DNA from: a virus
Taxonomy: Duplodnaviria; Caudoviricetes
Virus record (IMG/VR): IMGVR_UViG_3300037492_000170
Coordinates: 32,001 to 96,000 of that record
Reading direction: 5' to 3' (one strand)
Length of the DNA stretch: 64,000 bases
Part shown: piece after piece, positions 728 through 35,941 of the stretch
Numbering within the stretch: position 1 is the first letter of the stretch
Layout of the letters: every line of letters starts with the position of its first letter
Notes under the pieces: generated by a model
Told to the model about the DNA's origin: nothing
Databases searched by the model: none
The model's input: only the letters and a program-made list of their open reading frames with translations
Program-made: the position numbers and the translations under genes

Positions 728-1283
728 TCTAGCAAATCATATTAAAATGTACCCGCACTCAGCAATCATGGAAAAAGAAGGTAGGCTTTATGGGCAGTGG
801 ATAATAGGAAACAACTACCGGGCTACACAACCATATCATGGTTCCTACCCTCCATCATATGTGGAGCGCGTTAAATCTTTATTCCCAGACAATAAAAAGA
901 TACTACATCTATACTCTGGGATGGTCCAACCAGCAGAAGGAGAACAGACATTCGATATAAACCCTGCTTTAAACCCCACAAAATGTGGTAAAGCTGAGGA
1001 GTTATCTGATTATTTTTCTGAAAACGCTTTCAGTTTAGTCTTGGCAGACCCGCCATATACTCCAGCAGACGCTGCTAAATATGGTGCCAAGATGCCTATC
1101 ACGTACAGAGTTATGTCCGAGCTGTATAAAATCGTGGAGGTGGGGGGCGTAGTCGTGTGGCTTTGTACTAGAATACCACTTTGGAAAAAGATTGAGTGGA
1201 AATTGCTGGGAGTAATAGGGCTCTTTTGTGGCACTAATAGGGTGTATCGTGCTGTTGTTCTACTTCAAAAAATTAATGCTTGA
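708..1283 (+). CDS. putative amino (N6-adenine/N4-cytosine) methyltransferase
   Basis: ILHLYSG motif-I-like segment, DINP, and catalytic LVLADPPY motif. Confidence 0.7.
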   Translation: MRYRVHNLANHIKMYPHSAIMEKEGRLYGQWIIGNNYRATQPYHGSYPPSYVERVKSLFPDNKKILHLYSGMVQPAEGEQTFDINPALNPTKCGKAEELSDYFSENAFSLVLADPPYTPADAAKYGAKMPITYRVMSELYKIVEVGGVVVWLCTRIPLWKKIEWKLLGVIGLFCGTNRVYRAVVLLQKINA

Positions 1284-1307
1284 CAAAAAATTCTAAAATG
1301 GTATAAT
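1280..1307 (+). promoter_or_regulatory. sigma70-type promoter of the Y RNA/tRNA/ro60 operon
   Basis: TTGACA (1280-1285), 16-nt spacer with extended TG, TATAAT (1302-1307). Confidence 0.85.
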
Positions 1308-1336: not shown

Positions 1337-1470
1337 GGGAGCGTCGGAGATGACACTTACTTCTCATGCTAAGAGAGAGAGAGACCTTGGTGCAAATCCA
1401 AGCGGGTATGCTTGCATATCTGTGGGCAAGTAGCAAGCCGCGTTGTCAGTGTCTTCGCTTCTTACCTCCC
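1337..1470 (+). ncRNA. Y RNA-like element Y1 (YrlA-like, circularly permuted tRNA cargo)
   Basis: GGGAG/CTCCC and GACACT/AGTGTC stems, CGTCG and TACTTC boxes; inside: anticodon-like arm, T arm CTTGG-TGCAAAT-CCAAG, loop-closed acceptor stem, D arm; upstream of ro60. Confidence 0.8.
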
Positions 1471-1484
1471 AACTTGTTTATTAC

Positions 1485-1551
1485 CAGTGGCGACGAATGA
1501 TAAGGATACTTCATGCTAAGAAAAACTCCCTATCAGTAAACTATCCCACTG
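1485..1551 (+). ncRNA. Y RNA-like element Y2
   Basis: CAGTGG/CCACTG and TGATAAGGA/TCCCTATCA stems; GACGAATG fits the bacterial Y RNA GNCGAAN(0-1)G motif; TACTTC box. Confidence 0.75.
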
Positions 1552-1561
1552 ATTATTATAA

Positions 1562-1629
1562 ACGAGCGGCGTTAGTGAGGATTACTTCATCTGAATTGAA
1601 AAAAACATCTTCACTGTTCCTTCCCTCGT
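1562..1629 (+). ncRNA. Y RNA-like element Y3
   Basis: ACGAG/CTCGT and AGTGAGGAT/ATCTTCACT stems; CGGCG and TACTTC boxes. Confidence 0.75.
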
Positions 1630-1644
1630 ATCATCTCTAGGTAG

Positions 1645-1756
1645 ACGTGCGGCGGCTGTATCAGGTACTTCGTGTAACTGGTTAAACACTCTTCCTAATC
1701 GGGAGACTTTCTGGGTTCAAATCCCAGAGTACCCCTGATACAAATATTACCCACGT
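1645..1756 (+). ncRNA. Y RNA-like element Y4 with embedded tRNA cloverleaf
   Basis: ACGTG/CACGT and TGTATCAGG/CCTGATACA stems; CGGCG and TACTTC boxes; enclosed D arm, anticodon arm and T arm (CTGGG-TTCAAAT-CCCAG). Confidence 0.8.
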
Positions 1757-1768
1757 TACTAAAATATA

Positions 1769-1828
1769 TCCTTGTGCCCGGATTAATTTTCCACCGAGCA
1801 ATAAGCTCAACAGCACAGGGAGTTTTTT
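1769..1828 (+). ncRNA. small three-way-junction RNA or terminator-like element
   Basis: TCCTTGTGC/GCACAGGGA closing stem, two inner hairpins, followed by T6. Confidence 0.4.
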
Positions 1829-1841
1829 AATGGGTGATTAA

Positions 1842-2012
1842 ATGACAAAAGATGAAACCATAAAACGTCTTTCTTCGTCTCTTTATGACGCAGCCTCTAA
1901 CCGCCAAGAAGATAAATCCCCAGAAGCAGTATTGAAAACTGTCTCACAGTGGTTAGAAGAATTACCTACTGAGATGGAAAAGCTATTGAAAGAGAAAGAA
2001 TCGGCTGGTTAG
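1842..2012 (+). CDS. small hypothetical protein (56 aa) inside the RNA operon
   Basis: GGGTGA RBS-like sequence, ATG 1842 to TAG 2012 (MTKDETIKRLSSSLYDAA...); the last codons overlap tRNA-Asp. Confidence 0.55.
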   Translation: MTKDETIKRLSSSLYDAASNRQEDKSPEAVLKTVSQWLEELPTEMEKLLKEKESAG

Positions 2013-2076
2013 TGTAGAGGTAACACATTGGATTGTCTATCCAATTTCAAGGGTTCAATTCCCTTACCAGTCGCCA
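2003..2076 (+). tRNA. trnD: tRNA-Asp(GTC)
   Basis: GGCTGGT/ACCAGTC acceptor, TTGGA-TTGTCTA-TCCAA anticodon arm, G73, encoded CCA. Confidence 0.92.
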
Positions 2077-2081
2077 AGTAT

Positions 2082-2156
2082 TGCGGGATAGTTCAGTAGA
2101 AGAACGCGTGGCTCATACCCACGAAGTCGAGAGTGCAATTCTCTCTCCCGCGACCA
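2082..2156 (+). tRNA. trnM: tRNA-Met(CAT), initiator-like
   Basis: TGCGGGA/TCCCGCG acceptor (weak 1:72 pair), CGTGG-CTCATAC-CCACG arm, CCA. Confidence 0.85.
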
Positions 2157-2258
2157 GTGGTGAAAGGGTGAATGCGTAACATATTGTTATTAGCCTCATC
2201 CAACCAGGGGATGGCACTTCGATTACGAATACAGTCATCCCCACTTATTTAAAAATAC

Positions 2259-2344
2259 GGAGGGGTGGGCGAGTGGTTGATGCCAACGGTCCTGAACACC
2301 GTAGGTCGAAAGACCCGTAGGTTCGAATCCTACTCCCTCTTCCA
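2259..2344 (+). tRNA. trnS: tRNA-Ser(TGA)
   Basis: ACGGT-CCTGAAC-ACCGT arm, long variable arm, GTTCGAATCC T arm, CCA; has C33 and U73. Confidence 0.85.
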
Positions 2345-2351
2345 TTAATAT

Positions 2352-2427
2352 GCCGGTGTAGCTCAATTGGCAGAGCAACTGACCTGTAATCAGTTTGTTG
2401 GGGGTTCGATTCCTCCTACCGGCTCCA
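2352..2427 (+). tRNA. trnT: tRNA-Thr(TGT)
   Basis: GCCGGTG/TACCGGC acceptor, ACTGA-CCTGTAA-TCAGT arm (C33), CCA. Confidence 0.88.
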
Positions 2428-2433
2428 GTGAAT

Positions 2434-2519
2434 GCAGGAGTGGAGGAATGGCATACTCAACGGACTTAAAATCCGTTGCCAGAAATGGATTGAGGGTTCG
2501 ACTCCCTCCTCCTGTACCA
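2434..2519 (+). tRNA. trnL: tRNA-Leu(TAA)
   Basis: ACGGA-CTTAAAA-TCCGT arm, long variable arm, A73, CCA. Confidence 0.92.
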
Positions 2520-2525
2520 GTATAC

Positions 2526-2603
2526 GGGGGTGTCGCTCAAATAGGTAGAAGCGCCTGGTTTAGAGCCAGTTCAGTAAAAGTTCGAATCTTTTCACCCCTA
2601 CCA
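2526..2603 (+). tRNA. tRNA with TAG anticodon (nominally Leu) on a short-variable-loop, Pro-like body
   Basis: GGGGGTG/CACCCCT acceptor, CTGG-TTTAGAG-CCAG arm, AAAAG-TTCGAAT-CTTTT T arm, CCA. Confidence 0.75.
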
Positions 2604-2609
2604 ATCAAT

Positions 2610-2687
2610 TCCCTGGTAGCTCAGTTGGTAGTAGCGTGTGACTGTTAATCACAAGGTTCGCAGGTTCGAGACCTGCCCAGGGAGCCA
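2610..2687 (+). tRNA. trnN: tRNA-Asn(GTT)
   Basis: TCCCTGG/CCAGGGA acceptor, TGTGA-CTGTTAA-TCACA arm, G73, CCA. Confidence 0.93.
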
Positions 2688-2694
2688 ATAAACG

Positions 2695-2779
2695 GGGGAA
2701 GCTGTAGAGATAGAGAGCTACGCTAGTCTGTAAAACTAGTCCTTCGGGTGAGCAGGGGCGGTACCTGCCTTCCCCACCA
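2695..2779 (+). tRNA. trnY: tRNA-Tyr(GTA), non-canonical D and T loops
   Basis: GGGGAAG/CTTCCCC acceptor, CTAGT-CTGTAAA-ACTAG arm, variable arm, T loop GGCGGTA, CCA. Confidence 0.85.
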
Positions 2780-2800: not shown

Positions 2801-2871
2801 GCGGAGCGGCGGAGACTAGAGATACTTCAAACTGTTACTTTGACCAAACTCTAGTCAACACTACCCTCCAC
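2801..2871 (+). ncRNA. Y RNA-like element Y5, directly upstream of ro60
   Basis: GGAG/CTCC and GACTAGAG/CTCTAGTC stems; CGGCG, TACTTC and CTACC boxes; inner TCAAA-CTGTTAC-TTTGA hairpin. Confidence 0.78.
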
Positions 2872-6753: not shown

Positions 6754-9311
6754 GTAATATATTCCTCCAAATCTGCATAATTATATCCTACCTTCGCCTC
6801 TACTACCCAAGGCACTTTCAATTCCACCCCAAAATATTCCTTTAGGGGGAGATTTTCCATCTCATATTGTATTATTGGTGCATAAAAGTCAACCCTATCT
6901 TCTCTACATTCGAAGATTAACTCATCATGAACAAATAAAATTGCTTTTATCTCTTTAGGATTCAACAATCCCTTTCGAAGAAGTTCATTGCAAGCCAGTA
7001 GTACAGAGTCTGAGGCAGCCGCCTGTATAGAATGGTTATAAGCCTGTCGTTCACTCCTTCCCGCGGCTTCCTGGTCTAGTGAATTTATCTCAGGGAGTCT
7101 CCTACGTCTACCAAGGGGGGACGAAACGTAACCAAGTTTCCTGGCTGACTTCCGTATCTTACTATGATAGGCTGCAATCCCTGGATACGTTTTAAAGAAT
7201 AGTGCATGATAATGCTTAGCTTCATCTATAGTCAAATCAATATCGTATTGAAGTTTGGCATATTTCTGATATCCATATACCCCCATCCCATATAACAACC
7301 CAAAGACGAGAGACTTTGCGCGCTTACGCGCAAGCTTGAAATCGTCTTCAGGAACCTCGTCCCTAGTCTTACCCAAAAGAAGTTCTGCGGTCTTAGTATG
7401 CACATCCTCCTTATTCCTGTATACCTCCAACAAGGTCGGGTCCTCAGAACAGTGAGCCATCCACCTAACCTCCGCCTGAGACGCATCCAACGCTAAGAAT
7501 ACTGAACCAGGCTTGGCTATTATAAGCCTACGCATCTCCCTGCCGGTACCACTAGCAGGTATGTTCTGTAAGTTAGGCGCGTTGACACTCGTACGCCCAG
7601 TAGTAGCAGTAACTAAAGAATAGGTGGGATGAATCCTACCGTCAGACCTGACTGACTGCTCGAAGTTCTTAATATATCTAGTGACTAAAGTGTTTAATTT
7701 ACTCCACTCCTCATATACCACTATAAACTCTAAAGCCTTCTTATGAATCCTGCCTTTATCCTTCAGATAATTCCTAGCCTTAGCATCTACACTAAAGGTG
7801 CCCCCCTTCGAAGTCTTGAAAATGGGCTCCAAGTGATAACCATCCTCTGCAAACAACACATCTCTAATTAAACCCGCTCTCGTAAGCTTTATCCCTTGTG
7901 GTGTGTGTCTCTCCAATACACCGGGGGGGATGAGTGCCACAGCGAGCTTATAACATGAGACTAATTCTCTAGATATTGTATCCTTAACAATAGGAAGTTG
8001 TTCCATATCAACCAACGCGCCATTGTTAGCAAACTCAAACAGCGACGTTGATATTGTAGGCATCACAAACTTAGAGAAATAATTAGCTACGCGTTTAGTT
8101 TCAAGAAGTCTGTTGCGCGTACTTATAGCAGAGACGTAAGTGGTCGCTGCATCGGCACACGCGTAGTAGGATAGTTCGCTGCAAGGAACGGATAACATAT
8201 TGGACTTATCGAATTTGTTGTCAAACTCAGTAGAGTAAGAAGAATCTAGGGTAGTGAAGTGCTTCCTAACCTGCTCTAAAGATGCTCTGGCGTGAAGGTT
8301 CTCATCTAAAAGATGAGCCGCAGCCTGAACATCCATACCATAAGCTCTTGGTTTAATGGGGGGAAGTCCCTCACGAATACAGAGCGCGTTGATGAATAGT
8401 AAATCAAAATTTCCATTGAACATGTACTTGATAATATCTGGAGATTCTATCAAACGCACAAGGTCACTCAGCTTCTTATCGAAGTTGGTGGACTTCCTAA
8501 CCCCTATTTTCTGTTCTACCTTCTTTCTACCGACCTTGGCAGTAAAATCAACATAAAAATCCGGATTATCTTCACACATCTCATGCAGATATACCTGGTA
8601 TGCGGTCTCCTGATCAGCACACAGTGAATAAGATATAAGAAGATTGTTATTGCCTAGCCAATCAAGTCCCTGTGTCTCTGTATCTAAAGCAACTGCCCTT
8701 GGTTTCTCATCGAACAACTTATCCAAACTCTCCAGTTCTTTAAATCTGAATGTGCTCATGGGATCAATTGGCACACAACCACTATCAAGAAAGCGTTTAA
8801 TCTTAGCAAAATCTGTGATTAGTTCAGACGTAAAGCTGTGAGCGCGTAGACAATAAGCCGGGTGATAGGTAGGAAGCACCCAGCAATTAAACTCCTCAGA
8901 CCATACAAAAACACCGTGCCTCTTCTTTATGTTACGCTGCCTCATTACCTGCCATGTAGCTATATCCCCGAGTGTAACAATCAGTTTAGGTTTGATAGCT
9001 GTGGCAGCTCTAACCATAAATCTTCTACAGTGTTGGAGAAGAGTGTTCACTTCTTTTACAGTATAAGCATCCTTATCAATCCTACACACAGCAGCGTTTG
9101 ATAGAAAAAAACTATCTAGATTAAGCTCGGTAAGAAATGCTACTTTCTTAAGCAGGTCTCCAGAGGGACCAACAAAAGGTTGTCCTTCTACCAACTCCAT
9201 TCTTCCAGGTGATTCCCCAACTAGCATTACATCAGCGTTGACATTACCTCTAAACGGAACTTGTTTTAGTCTCCGATAGTTTGGGCATTCTTTGTCAAGA
9301 CACTTCTGCAT
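6750..9311 (-). CDS. polA: family A DNA polymerase with N-terminal family-4 uracil-DNA glycosylase domain (SPO1-like)
   Basis: GESPG..E...GQPFVGPSG and TYHPA (UDG); DTET exonuclease; TGRTS..PNLQN, DASQAEVR, KSLVFGLLYG and VHDE polymerase motifs. Confidence 0.95.
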   Translation of the reverse strand: MQKCLDKECPNYRRLKQVPFRGNVNADVMLVGESPGRMELVEGQPFVGPSGDLLKKVAFLTELNLDSFFLSNAAVCRIDKDAYTVKEVNTLLQHCRRFMVRAATAIKPKLIVTLGDIATWQVMRQRNIKKRHGVFVWSEEFNCWVLPTYHPAYCLRAHSFTSELITDFAKIKRFLDSGCVPIDPMSTFRFKELESLDKLFDEKPRAVALDTETQGLDWLGNNNLLISYSLCADQETAYQVYLHEMCEDNPDFYVDFTAKVGRKKVEQKIGVRKSTNFDKKLSDLVRLIESPDIIKYMFNGNFDLLFINALCIREGLPPIKPRAYGMDVQAAAHLLDENLHARASLEQVRKHFTTLDSSYSTEFDNKFDKSNMLSVPCSELSYYACADAATTYVSAISTRNRLLETKRVANYFSKFVMPTISTSLFEFANNGALVDMEQLPIVKDTISRELVSCYKLAVALIPPGVLERHTPQGIKLTRAGLIRDVLFAEDGYHLEPIFKTSKGGTFSVDAKARNYLKDKGRIHKKALEFIVVYEEWSKLNTLVTRYIKNFEQSVRSDGRIHPTYSLVTATTGRTSVNAPNLQNIPASGTGREMRRLIIAKPGSVFLALDASQAEVRWMAHCSEDPTLLEVYRNKEDVHTKTAELLLGKTRDEVPEDDFKLARKRAKSLVFGLLYGMGVYGYQKYAKLQYDIDLTIDEAKHYHALFFKTYPGIAAYHSKIRKSARKLGYVSSPLGRRRRLPEINSLDQEAAGRSERQAYNHSIQAAASDSVLLACNELLRKGLLNPKEIKAILFVHDELIFECREDRVDFYAPIIQYEMENLPLKEYFGVELKVPWVVEAKVGYNYADLEEYIT

Positions 9312-15166: not shown

Positions 15167-15256
15167 CTTGCACCTCCTATTAGTGCGTCCTAGACTGTTT
15201 CTTAGAGGCAGGTCAGCTAGGATACTGACTTTTCGGGTACGTTGCCCTAGCCTCTA
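15167..15256 (-). ncRNA. HNH-associated pseudoknotted leader RNA, copy A
   Basis: TAGAGGC/GCCTCTA P1, TA-GGG..CCC-GAA, GTCAG/CTGAC P3; loop TCCTAG pairs with downstream CTAGGA. Confidence 0.75.
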
Positions 15257-15353
15257 TTGTTATTATACTCACATTTTGGCAGGGATGAGCCATAAGAAGA
15301 TGATGACGATAATTAGAAAAGCCAAAGCACCCAGATATAACGCGAACTCGCGG

Positions 15354-17342: not shown

Positions 17343-17669
17343 TTAGGCGTTACCCATAGGCTGCTCAACTTCACCAAAATCACATAAATCGTCAGGAATG
17401 GTGGCAAGATACTTTAATAAGTCCCCGTGTTTAGCAACGAAGAGGCAGTGGTAAATAATATTAGCAACCATCTGCTGCTCTTGTGGACTCATCTGACGTG
17501 AAATCAGATTCAACTCATACGCCAGATAATTTAACACGCCTTGTGTTGCCATTGCAGTACGCGCATTGCTAACTGTCTCACGTACCAACCGTTTCCCTTC
17601 GTCCGATTCACATAACTTAAGCATCACGTTTGGCTGCAGGATATATTTGGGATTGTTTTCTTTATTCAT
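17343..17669 (-). CDS. hypothetical protein
   Basis: TAATG overlap with the RNR stop codon. Confidence 0.6.
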   Translation of the reverse strand: MNKENNPKYILQPNVMLKLCESDEGKRLVRETVSNARTAMATQGVLNYLAYELNLISRQMSPQEQQMVANIIYHCLFVAKHGDLLKYLATIPDDLCDFGEVEQPMGNA

Positions 17670-19522
17670 TACAACTCGCAAGAGTTTCCTGCACAGGCAA
17701 ATTCTCGACTACCTGTGGTAGTATCTGTATTCTCATACTCTGAAAGTTTACTGAAGTCAAGGACTGGGAGTTCTCTCAACAGTCTATGATATTCTATTTC
17801 TGATACCTCCTCATACGGAGCTTGCGCGTACGACTTGTTCTCGTATGGGAAGAAAGCAACTCCATTAATAGTATCAAAATGTTTATACACATAAGCTATA
17901 ACCTCCAACCACTCATCATCTTTAACAAAGATGGTGCAGCTCATGTTCTGTTCTGCCCAATTCTCTACTAACATTCTATACCACTCAAGTTGACCAATTG
18001 CTGTATCCTGCTCACGAGTCTTCGCTCCGTCTGGAGAACGCATAGGGAACGAGAATATTGCAGTATCGTGGTTGCCTTTGTCTAACTCATAAGGCATACC
18101 TTGGTCAACCATCATCCTAAACAGAGCATCGTGCATCGAGATACGTACGCGTCTAAGATAATAATTAGCCCACCTGGAGTGCATACCTGAAGAGCAATCA
18201 ACCATCTGACTCACAGTACCACTAGGCTTTCCAAGCGTTATAGCTGCTGGCATATTTATACCAAGTGCTGCTGATGCCTGTTTAGCAGTCTTCACGGCAG
18301 TAGTACGCCAATGGCGTAGTGTCTCTGGTGTTATCAGATTTATATTATCACAGAGTCCTGTAAGTGATACCCCTAGTAACCTCTCTTCTTCTGCATTTTT
18401 AGCCCACTCAGGACGTAAATGAGGGAAGTATGTAAGTGTAGACTGAATACATCCCATCCAGGTCGCTGTTCGTATCTTGTCTGCTACACTATCAAAATCA
18501 TCATCTGCTCGAATGACTACCTCAGTTAAATTGCATAAACCCATATCACGTAGTAGTGTTTCCCCACAGGGATTTGATATCACTATAGCACTCTTATCTC
18601 TACGTTTAGGGCTTCGTTTTCTCGCTGCCACTAAATTAAATATGCCACGCTCACCAGAGCCAGACTTAGCCATATCTATGAACTCTTGGGTAAACTTGAG
18701 GACATCAGGTTTCTTTCTATAAACTGCTGAGATATTTGCCATGAACCTTCTTGGGTGAAAGTTACCCTGCTTTGCATTCTGCATATCCATATCATCTACA
18801 TCACATAAACATATCATAGCAGTCCGACGAACACCACCACAAACCACCGCAGATCCTACCTCACACATCATATCAAACACTTCTATAGATTTAAGCTTAC
18901 GATCTTGGGCACCTATAATTGTTTCTCTCAGGAACTCCAAACAACGCGCTAAAGGCTCAGGACCGGAAGCATAACCGCCTGATATCACTAAGGGAGTTCC
19001 CGCTGGTCTCACTTGAGAGTAATCAAACACTGCATCTCTACCGTTGAACCATTCCTGTATACCAAAATCAACTGCTTTCTTCCAACCTAACCTGCTATCT
19101 CCAACAACATGCCTCAATGTAGGCAAATTCCGCTGCTTTTTTATCTCAGGAAGTTGCTCTAACCACTTTGCCTCCACAGAAAACCCAACACCAGTGCCAG
19201 CAAGTTCAATATACATTGCCTCGCCAAAACCTTCTAGTGAGGTCGAGCAAAAACCTGAACAACCGTATGCAGCTATATTATCTCGTCTTGCATTCTCCCC
19301 AGCAGACCAGACAAGCCTCATACTTGCCATGACACCTTTCGTAAGCATATAATCTTTAATCTTTTTCTTTGTCTTGGTGGGTATATTCTGGCAGTTCTTC
19401 GTTTCGTTAAATATAAAATTGCAGTATCTATCAACAGTCTCTTCCCAGACTTCACGCCTCCCTAATTCTGGGAGAAAACGACTGTATGTACGTAGAAAAA
19501 TAAACTCCTCGTATATCCCCAT
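17669..19522 (-). CDS. nrdJ: class II (adenosylcobalamin-dependent) monomeric ribonucleotide reductase
   Basis: RTYSR, VVCGGVRRTA, SNPCGE, KPSGTVSQ and C-terminal CAGNSC motifs; no beta-subunit gene nearby. Confidence 0.92.
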   Translation of the reverse strand: MGIYEEFIFLRTYSRFLPELGRREVWEETVDRYCNFIFNETKNCQNIPTKTKKKIKDYMLTKGVMASMRLVWSAGENARRDNIAAYGCSGFCSTSLEGFGEAMYIELAGTGVGFSVEAKWLEQLPEIKKQRNLPTLRHVVGDSRLGWKKAVDFGIQEWFNGRDAVFDYSQVRPAGTPLVISGGYASGPEPLARCLEFLRETIIGAQDRKLKSIEVFDMMCEVGSAVVCGGVRRTAMICLCDVDDMDMQNAKQGNFHPRRFMANISAVYRKKPDVLKFTQEFIDMAKSGSGERGIFNLVAARKRSPKRRDKSAIVISNPCGETLLRDMGLCNLTEVVIRADDDFDSVADKIRTATWMGCIQSTLTYFPHLRPEWAKNAEEERLLGVSLTGLCDNINLITPETLRHWRTTAVKTAKQASAALGINMPAAITLGKPSGTVSQMVDCSSGMHSRWANYYLRRVRISMHDALFRMMVDQGMPYELDKGNHDTAIFSFPMRSPDGAKTREQDTAIGQLEWYRMLVENWAEQNMSCTIFVKDDEWLEVIAYVYKHFDTINGVAFFPYENKSYAQAPYEEVSEIEYHRLLRELPVLDFSKLSEYENTDTTTGSREFACAGNSCEL

Positions 19523-22367: not shown

Positions 22368-22458
22368 AACTACCTCCTGTAGTATTATCCTGATTTTGTT
22401 AGTTAATGGGCAGGTGGTTCAGGAATACCACTGTTCGGGAGCTACCCTAGCCCATTAA
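22368..22458 (-). ncRNA. HNH-associated pseudoknotted leader RNA, copy B
   Basis: TTAATGGGC/GCCCATTAA P1, TAGGGTAGCTCCCGAA; loop TCCTGA pairs with downstream TCAGGA. Confidence 0.75.
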
Positions 22459-25344: not shown

Positions 25345-25426
25345 TATATTACTCCTATCCTTTGTAGTTTATAGTGGGCAGGTAGCTAAGGTTTCTACTT
25401 TTCGGTTCCGGTAACCTAGCCCATTA
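25345..25426 (-). ncRNA. leader RNA copy C (no HNH downstream)
   Basis: TAATGGGC-TAGG..CCGAAAA-GTAG-AAACCTTAG-CTAC-CT-GCCCACTA; the pseudoknot partner is degenerate. Confidence 0.7.
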
Positions 25427-28920: not shown

Positions 28921-29012
28921 TTCACTCCTTATTGTGTTATCCTTAGAAGTTATTTAATGGGAAGGCGGCTAAGGTTTCCGCTTTATCGGGTGTACACCCC
29001 TATCCCATTAAA
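28921..29012 (-). ncRNA. HNH-associated pseudoknotted leader RNA, copy D
   Basis: TTAATGGGA/TCCCATTAA P1, GCGG/CCGC P3; loop CCTTAG pairs with downstream CTAAGG. Confidence 0.75.
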
Positions 29013-34214: not shown

Positions 34215-34305
34215 AATATCACTCCTTATGGTGTTTATCCTTAGTGATTATCATGGGCAGGCCGCTAAGGTTTCGGCTCTTCGGGTCTAGATTCCCTAGC
34301 CCATG
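34215..34305 (-). ncRNA. HNH-associated pseudoknotted leader RNA, copy E
   Basis: CATGGGC/GCCCATG P1, GCCG/CGGC P3; loop CCTTAG pairs with CTAAGG; overlaps the 3' end of the upstream glycosyltransferase gene. Confidence 0.75.
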
Positions 34306-35941
34306 CTAAAACTTGTTCAATAGCTTCTATAACTTCCTCCACAGAATGATTCATACAATCATGGTCTGGCAAAGGACACTGTTCTCTATCTTGTTGATAT
34401 GGTTGATTATTAAAGCATTTATATTCTATAGGGCACGGCTTCCACAAGTTAACTCTATCGGGACCCTCATGACCATACTGCTCTGGTCTAGTCCTCCCAA
34501 ACATGGTTACTGTTGGTACATCAAAAGCTGCTGCCACATGACTCCCCATAGTGTCCAAACTAACTACAAGGCTTGAAGAAGAAATCCATCGAAAAGCTTC
34601 TCTAAATTTAAGGTTTGATATCGACACAACCTTATCAAAAGAATCGTGCTGCTCCTCACCTGTCAGGTGGATAACATCATAACCCTTTTCAGTTAGATAA
34701 TCAATAATAGCCTGCCATCTGTCATTGGACCAATACTTAGTTCTGCTGATGTCTGAGAAATCAAAGAGTTTAGCATTACTTTGCGGGCATATAACAACAT
34801 AAGGTCCACTATTCTCCATAGGCTCTATTCCAAATATCTGTGGGCGCGTACTTGGAGCCACGGGAACATCTATCATCCTGCAATACGCCTCAGATATGTG
34901 TCCCTCCCACTTATTCTCTGCCATCCAACTATATATACTCTTCTCTACTCGATATGTTCTCTGTGCATCAAACTGACCCTTGGCTATCTCATCAATATCT
35001 GGATTTCCTTTGAATACGTGCTCACCGTAAGGATGATAGACTGATATATTTCGTTCTGGATACATCTCTCGTAGTTGCCTGAAAGCAGGTTCAGACATAA
35101 CCAAATCCCCGATAGCGTGACTCAAAGAAATGTGAATACCTGGTTTCAAGTTCTTCTTCAAAATATTGAACCTACGTAAATCATCGAGAGATTTACTCCC
35201 GTCTTTTACTGCTCTCGCTCCACCAGTACCTGCCCGGAAATGATATGCTATCGCCCCTGGATGCACTAATACTTTCATACCTTCGAGATGAACGCGCCAG
35301 GACAAGTGTGTATCCTCTCTATGAAAATTCAAGAGAACCGTCTCAAACCCATTAATCCGGTCGAGTGCTGCCTCTGTTAACATCATAGCAGAGTTTATAT
35401 GCTCCACCGGAAAAGGCTTCTTCCTAGTGTGAAGGGACCACTGAACATTAACACTGTCACTAAGATGCTCAATAGTTCCGTGTTTATATCTATCATCGTC
35501 GAGTTTAAAGGTATCCGGTTTCGTCCCGGCGAATAGCATGAGTCCAGATGCAGCACCTACAAGTGGGTCATCGAACAAAGGAACTACCTTTTCCAAGTAG
35601 TCTGGAGATAACCACGAGTCATCCTCTGCTCGATATACCAAGGGATTCCCCCAGTCACGCGCACCTAACCACCCGGCTTGGTATACCGCCCCTACATGAT
35701 AAGTGCTTGGTCCTGGTAGAATTCTTATTCTATGCCCCTGCATCTGTAATTCACCAATAATTTTAGAATAAAGTGAATGCTTGGTCCACTTCTCCTGCGT
35801 AAATGCAACATCATCAGAGTCGTCTACGATACATAAATCAAAGTTTTTAAATGTTTGCATCCTCAAACTGAACAATAGCTGATGCACAATATCCATGCGG
35901 TTGTGCGTCGCAACTATCACTGTCACCCGTTTATTGGACAT
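34265..35941 (-). CDS. GT2 + GT9 (heptosyltransferase-like) double glycosyltransferase
   Basis: VATHNR, VDDS, EDD and REDT (GT2); AIGDLV, KYW, SLDTMGSHVAAAFDVPTVTMFG (GT9). Confidence 0.88.
   Translation of the reverse strand: MSNKRVTVIVATHNRMDIVHQLLFSLRMQTFKNFDLCIVDDSDDVAFTQEKWTKHSLYSKIIGELQMQGHRIRILPGPSTYHVGAVYQAGWLGARDWGNPLVYRAEDDSWLSPDYLEKVVPLFDDPLVGAASGLMLFAGTKPDTFKLDDDRYKHGTIEHLSDSVNVQWSLHTRKKPFPVEHINSAMMLTEAALDRINGFETVLLNFHREDTHLSWRVHLEGMKVLVHPGAIAYHFRAGTGGARAVKDGSKSLDDLRRFNILKKNLKPGIHISLSHAIGDLVMSEPAFRQLREMYPERNISVYHPYGEHVFKGNPDIDEIAKGQFDAQRTYRVEKSIYSWMAENKWEGHISEAYCRMIDVPVAPSTRPQIFGIEPMENSGPYVVICPQSNAKLFDFSDISRTKYWSNDRWQAIIDYLTEKGYDVIHLTGEEQHDSFDKVVSISNLKFREAFRWISSSSLVVSLDTMGSHVAAAFDVPTVTMFGRTRPEQYGHEGPDRVNLWKPCPIEYKCFNNQPYQQDREQCPLPDHDCMNHSVEEVIEAIEQVLAWARESRPEEPKP

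Follow-up and report, generated by a model that had tools for sequence, protein, structure and literature searches.

An unpermuted tRNA-like cloverleaf on a Y RNA scaffold upstream of a phage Ro60 gene: a candidate Ro60-bound tRNA mimic

Introduction

When a cloverleaf with the arm order of a tRNA is enclosed in the stem of a Y RNA-like module, next to a phage gene for Ro60, is it a tRNA that awaits release from this stem or a mimic that stays bound to Ro60? The question is raised by a module designated Y4, which is located in a 64,000-nucleotide stretch of phage DNA (hereafter the window) corresponding to bases 32001-96000 of the 122,744-bp virus record IMGVR_UViG_3300037492_000170, rated 99% complete. 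Bacterial Y RNAs are described as being encoded on the same strand as Ro60 and 5' of it, with a stem of 5' and 3' ends that serves as the Ro60 site and a distal module that mimics tRNA (PMC4201824); the role of this tRNA-like domain is presented as an open question both there and in a later study (10.1101/312249). In the account of Chen et al. 2014 (PMC4201824), YrlA is a Y RNA that resembles a permuted tRNA; it has the motif GNCGAAN0-1G, and its variable loop starts with a conserved YUAY.

A preliminary description of Y4, made from the letters alone, proposed that an intact-order cloverleaf lacking a CCA end is grafted onto the Y scaffold through its acceptor stem, and left the choice between an unchargeable mimic and a caged tRNA to be made. 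Here, we report the fold, the relatives, and the genomic setting of Y4, and weigh the explanations that these allow.

Results

Folding of 1636-1765 with RNAfold placed a cloverleaf within a stem at -39.8 kcal/mol (z = -3.24), with 1 of 200 shuffled sequences being as stable. The letters and coordinates given previously (1645-1756) and the tRNA order of the arms were reproduced. Both the fold and the alignments to R1, a covariance model of the Y4-type module, place the junction of cloverleaf and Y scaffold at the acceptor position, as had been proposed: the acceptor helix (1664-1668/9 with 1728/9-1733) is continued, beyond a bulge of two C (1734-1735), by a 7-bp stem. The outer helix (1644-1652/1750-1757) is an addition to the structure as first described, and GUGCGGCGGC is conserved in the internal loop between the two stems (Table 1). 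Furthermore, TGTATCAGG (1657-1665) and CCTGATACA (1734-1742) are perfect reverse complements, so that GG 1664-1665 pairs in one of two registers at once; since the acceptor helix takes this GG, the CC opposite is left as a bulge.

Y4 has hallmarks of a Y RNA in that its ends are paired in a long interrupted stem and a TROVE-domain gene, encoding Ro60, lies on the same strand, 1.1 kb 3' of it. Because the GNCGAAN0-1G motif sits at this place in known Y RNAs (PMC4201824), the segment 1644-1656 presumably binds Ro60.

The distal part of Y4 contains all nucleotides of the tRNA elbow (U8, A14, A15/U48, G18, G19, A21, G53-C61, T54, T55, C56, and A58). Other features depart from tRNA. Position 37 is a C, and C32 can pair with G38, the minimum-energy fold narrowing the anticodon loop to 5 nt; the Rfam alignment likewise lengthens the anticodon stem and leaves a loop of 5 nt, in agreement with the earlier notion of an aberrant loop. 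Under the reading of ARAGORN, nucleotide 26 is missing and an A·C stands at 1:72. The acceptor consists of 6 bp plus this A·C, with both strands prolonged by conserved 7-bp and 8-bp extensions, and in place of a free 7-bp acceptor with discriminator base and CCA, the 3' end reads AGTACCCC, then TGA. The reported lack of a CCA end is thus borne out, whereas CCA is encoded in all seven other tRNA genes of the window. The anticodon loop that orthologous tRNAs would keep, of 7 nt and with U33 and a purine at 37, is not a conserved feature of Y4 and its relatives. The default Rfam search gave no tRNA match on Y4, and the mascRNA model (18.9 bits, E 1.1) did not match it.

Relatives of the module were sought in several ways. 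A DNA search of phages returned matches to tRNA genes only, a single-protein locus search in IMG/VR and an exact 25-base pattern search returned no relative, and the best Ro60 among named phages was less than 33% identical to that of the window. The closest Ro60 proteins share 44-48% identity with it. An alignment of 25 Ro60 proteins led to 43 viral and 80 metagenome loci, and the loci and contigs compared with the window are referred to by L-numbers. In L006 (with its metagenome copy L075), L007, L008, and L045, arrays of about six modules on the same scaffold end approximately 30 nt 5' of Ro60, and the final module of each array is an unpermuted cloverleaf of the Y4 type. Other modules of these arrays follow the order of YrlA, with T arm, closed hairpin, and D arm.

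Model R1 scored 134.2 bits on L045, 134.1 on L008, 131.6 on L006 (and 131.6 on L075), 98.0 on L007, 94.6 on the window itself (1647-1754), and 68.9 on L372, compared with at most 35.4 bits on everything else in the 124 sources. The next matches are neighbouring Y modules, which align end to end through the common scaffold; within the window, Y5 reached 22.8 bits (E 0.059), and Y3 was aligned over its full length (1561-1630) with a weak 17.1 bits (E 1.4). L045 is of the L008 type, and the search for homologues of the same graft thus yielded four further distinct phage sequences that carry the Y4 module. Y4 is the only copy of the module in the 122,744-bp phage genome. L372 originates from a scan of IMG/VR with a core pattern, which returned 5 stretches: 3 already known, L372 as the new one, and L371, which was rejected as a chance match within coding DNA. 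The pattern GTGCGGCGGC N9-16 CTTCGTG, which matched in 111 viral and at least 120 genome stretches, was also rejected; a T arm lay behind it in 3 of 231 matches, all on contigs already known, and the others are due to chance and come mostly from G+C-rich DNA. In the L372 contig, scaffold modules also adjoin the Ro60 gene.

The proposal that the TACTTC box doubles as the 5' strand of the acceptor extends to these relatives. In the window, L006, L008, L045, and L372, the box contributes TACT, which is paired with AGTA, and CCT/AGG takes this place in L007. The acceptor-like helix has 3-4 bp in L006, L007, L008, L045, and L372, compared with 6 bp in the window, and is followed in the relatives by an internal loop that is A/C-rich on its 3' side. 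Anticodon-like loops measure 5 or 7 nt in the window and 9, 6, 6, and 7 nt in the relatives, and their sequences are unrelated. Among the relatives, the Rfam tRNA model finds only the L007 copy (38.6 bits) and ARAGORN only that of L372, and the copies in L006, L008, and L045 are called neither by this model nor by ARAGORN.

Covariation was analyzed in an alignment of 5 distinct sequences (window, L006, L007, L008, and L372). Overall, 97.3% of cells pair and 13 of the 31 pairs change on both sides, a result that none of 500 column shuffles matched and for which slid partners gave 1-4 double-change pairs. An ordinary tRNA with unconserved flanks had been named beforehand as the outcome that would speak against a graft; the flanking stems are kept, with the inner stem being 100% paired and 5 of its 8 pairs compensatory. 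The T stem and the anticodon-like stem, with 5 pairs each, contain 3 and 4 compensatory pairs, respectively, and the D stem never varies. These differences between the relatives argue against a recent transfer of one sequence. At the contact of D and T loops, GG is combined with TTCAAAT or TTCGAAT in the window, L007, and L372, and GC is combined with TTGGAAT in L008 and L045 and with TCGGAAT in L006. This amounts to one compensatory swap, of G19:C56 to C19:G56.

Natural variation was inspected in DNA contigs of four sequencing runs, in which 22 differences are unlisted, so that Y4 cannot be called unchanged. Run X5 has a 17-kb contig that spans 1582-2014 and differs there by 19 substitutions and 3 gaps. 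Thirteen of these substitutions are listed, with 12 lying within 1614-1644 and the other at 1747, inside the internal loop; 6 further ones are unlisted. Among those listed, 1644 G>A converts a G·U pair into A-U. The alignments of runs X3 and X4 break off at 1558 and resume at 1644, corresponding to the borders of Y3, and that of X4 ends at 1710.

Y4 is the fourth of five modules in the window, all of which are built on the 5' scaffold GGCG...stem...(A/U/G)UACUUC, i.e., a GGCG-type 5' motif, a 7-10-nt stem strand, and (A/U/G)TACTTC (Table 1). The box, which the preliminary description had singled out, is indeed present on the + strand of each module, compared with 54 occurrences of TACTTC in the 64-kb window (both strands). 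It is not specific to the window and corresponds to the widespread element of YUAY type that YrlA-like RNAs have (PMC4201824, Fig. 2 legend). The hairpins of Y1 follow the order of YrlA, T-like (CTTGG/TGCAAAT/CCAAG) before D-like; this module lacks a clear closed hairpin for the acceptor and is not matched by RF02553.

Table 1. Coordinates of the Y-module array, its neighbours, and the parts of Y4 (window positions).
Feature	Position	Strand	Basis and details
Sigma-70-type promoter	1280..1307	+	TTGACA, 16 nt, TATAAT, TG ahead of -10; heads the Y-module array
Y1	1338-1469	+	stem-closed module, RNA fold; box 1358
Y2	1485-1551	+	stem-closed module, RNA fold; box 1507
Y3	1562-1629	+	stem-closed module, RNA fold; box 1583
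Y4	1640-1760	+	outer helix, internal loop, inner stem, cloverleaf; conserved core ~1644-1757
Y4 outer helix	1644-1652 with 1750-1757	+	RNAfold; C1650 bulged; three weaker pairs out to 1640/1760
Y4 conserved 5' motif GTGCGGCGGC	1647-1656	+	identical in L006, L007, L008, L045
Y4 internal loop	1653-1656 (CGGC) opposite 1743-1749	+	RNAfold
Y4 inner stem	1657-1663 (TGTATCA) with 1736-1742 (TGATACA)	+	RNAfold; paired in 5 of 5 sequences
Y4 acceptor-like 5' strand GGTACT	1664-1669	+	pairs with 1728-1733; then TC 1670-1671 (T8, C9)
Y4 TACTTC box	1666-1671	+	
Y4 D arm GTGT/AACTGGTTAA/ACAC	1672-1689	+	carries A14, A15, G18, G19, A21; stem invariant in 5 sequences
Y4 anticodon-like arm TCTTC/CTAATCG/GGAGA	1690-1706	+	5-bp stem and 7-nt loop, or 6-bp stem and TAATC
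Y4 variable region CTTT	1707-1710	+	T48 able to pair with A15
Y4 T arm CTGGG/TTCAAAT/CCCAG	1711-1727	+	
Y4 acceptor-like 3' strand AGTACC	1728-1733	+	then CC bulge 1734-1735
Y4 3' flank	inner stem 1736-1742, loop side 1743-1749, outer helix 1750-1760	+	without CCA
Branched hairpin and T run	1769..1829	+	9-bp stem 1769-1777 with 1813-1821; -22.2 kcal/mol, z = -2.79
Seven ordinary tRNA genes (Asp, Met, Ser, Thr, Leu, Leu, Asn)	2003..2687	+	Rfam 47-63 bits; between Y4 and Ro60
Y5	2801-2871	+	simple stem-closed module directly 5' of Ro60; box 2823
Ro60/TROVE-domain gene, 520 aa	2908..4470	+	open reading frame; PF05731, E 7.3e-25, 88.5 bits

Across the window and 123 loci, a script that looked for the box and then a T arm placed the T arm 21-30 nt past the box in most Ro60 loci, which corresponds to the YrlA order. 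A stricter classifier assigned at least 35 permuted modules in 26 loci and at least 10 unpermuted modules in 8 loci; this classifier is crude and missed the window and L035, so that the counts are lower bounds. The two orders co-occur in one array, on one scaffold, in related phages, and the suggestion that the same scaffold bears tRNA in two ways therefore holds. Outside the clade of Y4, unpermuted modules include three scaffolded cloverleaves in L073, called Tyr-gta, Pro-agg, and Met-cat by ARAGORN, and one in L035, called Thr-tgt (fold z = -3.74); in both loci, the box provides the 5' strand of the acceptor in another register. Further unpermuted modules were found in L050 (5710) and L034 (3242) and, by eye, in L067/L070 (3853, without a D stem) and L119 (980-1090). 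In the Ro60 loci of 12 Deinococci genomes, the order is mostly T-then-D, and Yrn1 of D. radiodurans was not identified among them.

Some of these loci contain additional RNA elements. Positions 5700-9300 of L073, a 195-kb metagenome contig, hold 25 tRNA calls by ARAGORN, many of them duplicate pairs, among Y-type scaffolds; the calls enclosed by such scaffolds are located at 7186-7257, 7405-7477, and 8288-8364. In L053, also a metagenome contig, a c-di-GMP-I riboswitch match (2900-2983, - strand, 53.2 bits) lies near the Ro60 gene, and L022, a 212-kb viral contig that also encodes Ro60, carries a tmRNA gene (1313-1662, + strand) with the tag ANNTFAVAA.

The array of the window is headed by a promoter whose hexamers match at 12 of 12 positions, plus the TG extension, in a pattern scan; a comparable TTGACA/TATAGT site is seen by eye ahead of the arrays in L006-L008. 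The branched hairpin behind Y4 possibly terminates a Y1-Y4 unit, as judged from its predicted fold; it was not reported by a terminator pattern scan that covered loops of 3-8 nt only. Just 5' of the promoter, a 191-aa open reading frame (ORF; 708-1283, + strand) without a Pfam match at E 0.001 encodes a DPPY motif, which is typical of N6-adenine or N4-cytosine DNA methyltransferases. A 56-aa ORF (1842-2012, + strand), likewise without a Pfam match, overlaps the start of tRNA-Asp (2003) with its final codons and may not be a real gene.

Between the tRNA genes and Y5, positions 2692-2779 (+ strand) resemble a tRNA-Tyr by eye, with a 7-bp acceptor (GGGGAAG/CTTCCCC) followed by ACCA, the loop CTGTAAA in the anticodon arm, and an extended variable region; its D loop is without the usual GG and its T loop without the usual TTC. 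This candidate was set aside, being uncalled by ARAGORN and Rfam and folding no better than its shuffles (z = 0.05). An ordinary 86-nt tRNA-Tyr is found 3' of Ro60 in L008 and L045. Elsewhere in the window, the int-alpA RNA motif (RF02996) was matched 5 times on the minus strand (15188-15257, 22388-22457, 25359-25426, 28941-29010, and 34238-34306) with 39.6-45.6 bits, compared with a gathering score of 35.8, the five sites being distributed over 19 kb.

Outside the window, the phage genome encodes a nucleotidyltransferase of the PolyA_pol/CCA-adding family (1019-1393; a 422-aa frame with 63.3 bits) as well as an RNA ligase (17580-18050; a 340-aa frame with 95.7 bits for PF09414); RtcB was not found in a search of this genome. 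These two enzymes, Ro60, the Y modules, and the tRNAs look, taken together, like an RNA or tRNA repair set.

Discussion

We consider Y4 to be most probably a phage Y RNA that acts as a Ro60-bound, non-decoding tRNA mimic, at a probability of roughly 0.65. This reading draws on its fold, the conservation and covariation of this fold, the scaffold that it has in common with its neighbours, the adjacent Ro60 gene, and the features that set it apart from tRNA. A transcript of Y1-Y4, started at the promoter, would probably be trimmed to the stem. The paired ends of Y4, comprising the outer helix, the internal loop with its conserved motif, and the inner 7-bp stem, would then be the part expected to bind Ro60, and the distal part would form a tRNA-shaped domain whose acceptor helix continues the Y stem and whose D and T loops are able to form an elbow. 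The anticodon-like arm, conserved neither in the length nor in the sequence of its loop, would be free and point outward. Tethered to Ro60, Y4 could in this way show the shape of elbow and anticodon arm to a tRNA-binding partner; alternatively, the cloverleaf may serve as a nuclease-resistant cap. Such an arrangement would parallel YrlA and Yrn1, but with the acceptor end, rather than the anticodon stem, as the point of fusion.

Several observations weigh against this reading. ARAGORN calls Y4 (1663-1735) a tRNA-Ile(aat), where a pseudo-tRNA call had been expected beforehand, and the Rfam tRNA model (RF00005) accepts it with 32.2 bits, compared with a gathering score of 29, although in the sensitive search only; ARAGORN also takes the L372 copy as a tRNA-Leu(taa). 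The latter module belongs to a tRNA array; its contig (134,852 bp) has the TROVE gene on the same strand, at a distance of 40 kb. Moreover, with a nucleotidyltransferase encoded by the phage, Y4 might be cut and given CCA. Its 5' motif, GGCGGCUG, deviates from the strict GNCGAAN0-1G, as do GGCGUAUA in the relatives and GGUGAUUA in L372; within the window, only Y2 (GACGAAUG) fits exactly. A GGUCCGA-like motif of the 5' strand is described as an alternative for Y RNAs (PMC4201824). The duplex of the 25-nt flanks of Y4 (-14.2 kcal/mol, with 54 of 2000 shuffles as good) lies within the range of the flanks of neighbouring tRNAs (-3.4 to -16.1 kcal/mol). This energy fails to discriminate, and we therefore base the argument for the flanking stems on how they are conserved and how they covary in the relatives. 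The covariation comprises 5 sequences from approximately 4 lineages in an alignment fitted to the model, so that its support appears good but not deep. Finally, the sequencing runs listed are all of DNA, and we infer the expression of Y4, its mature ends, its binding to Ro60, and the nature of its partner.

The explanation that competes most directly is that of a caged tRNA or pro-tRNA, in which the Y stem restrains a tRNA-like RNA until RNase P and a 3' nuclease excise it and a CCA-adding enzyme finishes it, the free RNA of approximately 73 nt being the one that acts, charged or not. M. smegmatis YrlA, which in vivo is a target of RNase P cleavage and acquires CCA (PMC4201824), sets a precedent for this route, and the phage-encoded nucleotidyltransferase, as a possible finisher, and RNA ligase would suit it. 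So would the acceptance of Y4 by both tRNA detectors, its acceptor of 6 bp plus A·C, and the canonical-looking 7-nt anticodon loops and longer acceptors of L073 7186-7257 (7 bp, GUA), L073 8288-8364 (CAU), and L035 2668-2741 (UGU). However, with the 3-4 acceptor pairs that precede the internal loop in the relatives, an excised RNA would have a weak acceptor, and the 5' leader of Y4 is base-paired right up to the would-be cleavage site. Such a fully paired 5' leader would make a poor substrate for RNase P. In addition, the anticodon loop varies in length and sequence within the clade, and the 'Tyr' copy in L073 has a short variable region, whereas two other tRNA-Tyr genes of that locus are 85 nt long. 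The pairing of the flanking stem is under selection, which is expected of a functional stem and needless for a discarded leader. We therefore regard release of a caged tRNA as unlikely for Y4; the evidence leans towards the mimic.

Even less probable, in our estimation, is that the modules are processing or insulating cassettes, with stems and box acting not as Ro60 sites but as signals for a host RNase (e.g., RNase III or E) that divides a long transcript of noncoding RNAs and tRNAs, and with the cloverleaf as mere cargo. The alternation of scaffolds with ordinary tRNA genes in L073 and L372, the distance of the L372 module from Ro60, and the indirect case for Ro60 binding of the modules would agree with this. 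Nevertheless, every scaffold locus came from the Ro60 search or, in the case of L372, from a TROVE-encoding contig, albeit in a sampling that is biased towards Ro60; the 5' motif lies where known Y RNAs touch Ro60 (PMC4201824); and conserved loops break the stem, which offers no long perfect duplex. Lastly, a functionless, decayed tRNA gene with flanks that are complementary by chance could account for the aberrant anticodon loop, the 1:72 mismatch, the low Rfam score, and the unexceptional energy of the flank duplex, but this very improbable reading appears close to refuted by the 69-134 bits that the conserved module reaches in four further phage sequences, all of them distinct, the compensatory changes in every variable helix, flanks included, the intact elbow nucleotides with their compensatory tertiary pair, and the few listed changes of the X5 variant in Y4 next to a heavily altered spacer.

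A broader and distinctly speculative idea goes further: phages with Ro60 might keep two complementary tRNA mimics on one scaffold, a permuted one of the YrlA type with its acceptor arm free and an unpermuted one with its anticodon arm free. The unpermuted form might be a Ro60-tethered decoy or sensor for host enzymes that target tRNA, such as anticodon nucleases, or else a reserve tRNA body caged by Ro60, to be freed and CCA-tailed by the phage nucleotidyltransferase once host tRNAs are attacked. Were this true, the arrays of Ro60 and Y RNAs, the tRNA arrays, the CCA-adding enzyme, and the RNA ligase would constitute one tRNA-protection system of the phage; the presence of the two enzymes would fit such a wider tRNA-centred function.

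Irrespective of this idea, the arrays offer a natural comparison, with permuted and unpermuted tRNA bodies side by side on one scaffold. Both forms retain the D/T elbow and differ in the arm that is fused to the Ro60 stem and the arm that is left free, which narrows the possible binding site of a partner, and the module pairs are ready-made constructs for pull-downs and structures. Furthermore, tRNA finders list such modules as unusual tRNAs, giving Ile-AAT for the window, Leu-TAA for L372, and Tyr, Pro, and Met for L073. These calls inflate the tRNA counts of phages, and the anticodons that they suggest are probably never used.

With respect to known RNAs, Y4 shares with a canonical tRNA (RF00005) the order of the cloverleaf, the lengths of its arms, and the elbow nucleotides. 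A tRNA-like domain of a larger RNA that is cut by RNase P and given CCA has precedents in M. smegmatis YrlA and in mascRNA-type elements (PMC4201824; 10.1101/312249). Among phages, Ro60 of the Thermus phage phiLo binds phage Y-like RNAs and the host PNPase (PMC12135203). Its RNAs Yrl1 and Yrl2 are, like Y4, located 5' of a phage Ro60 gene, in their case directly, and have a stem-bulge-stem with a CGAA-type motif (PMC12135203); in contrast to the window, phiLo has two RNAs rather than an array, and the term 'tRNA-like' has 0 occurrences in the main text of that paper. A description of unpermuted cloverleaf Y RNAs in phages was not found in our literature search, although the supplements of PMC4201824 may show unpermuted forms.

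YrlA (RF02553; S. Typhimurium structure 6CU1, cited in 10.1101/312249) and Y4 have in common the proximity to Ro60, the D/T elbow, the YUAY-type box, and a 5' motif of the Ro60 type, which in Y4 deviates from the strict GNCGAAN0-1G. In YrlA, however, T arm, closed acceptor hairpin, and D arm follow each other, the Y stem replaces the anticodon stem, and an anticodon arm is absent, whereas Y4 is unpermuted and has the Y stem at its acceptor end. In line with this, RF02553 does not match Y4; within 1200-2950, it gave only 22.6 and 16.5 bits (gathering score 69), both over ordinary tRNA genes. The topology is hence the reverse of that of YrlA, as first described, but it is not without precedent: Yrn1 of D. 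radiodurans is reported to have the orientation opposite to YrlA, with a 5-bp 'anticodon' stem and a 6-nt loop (PMC4201824). By its published description, Yrn1 resembles Y4 in lying 5' of Ro60 on the same strand, in forming the Ro60-binding stem, a presumed one in Y4, from its 5' and 3' ends, in having a T arm together with a stem-loop where a tRNA has its anticodon, in the D-to-T order of tRNA, and in an anticodon-like loop other than 7 nt. Yrn1 lacks a full D arm and a variable arm in the same account (PMC4201824), and its likeness to tRNA has been termed 'less evident' (Wang et al. 2018, 10.1101/312249). Y4 differs from it by a full cloverleaf with all elbow nucleotides that is accepted by tRNA detectors, by being encoded in a phage, by its YrlA-type (A/U/G)UACUUC box, and by its place in an array with other module types. 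As far as can be judged from its sequence and predicted fold, Y4 is thus the topology of Yrn1 realized with a complete cloverleaf, on a scaffold of the YrlA type, in phages.

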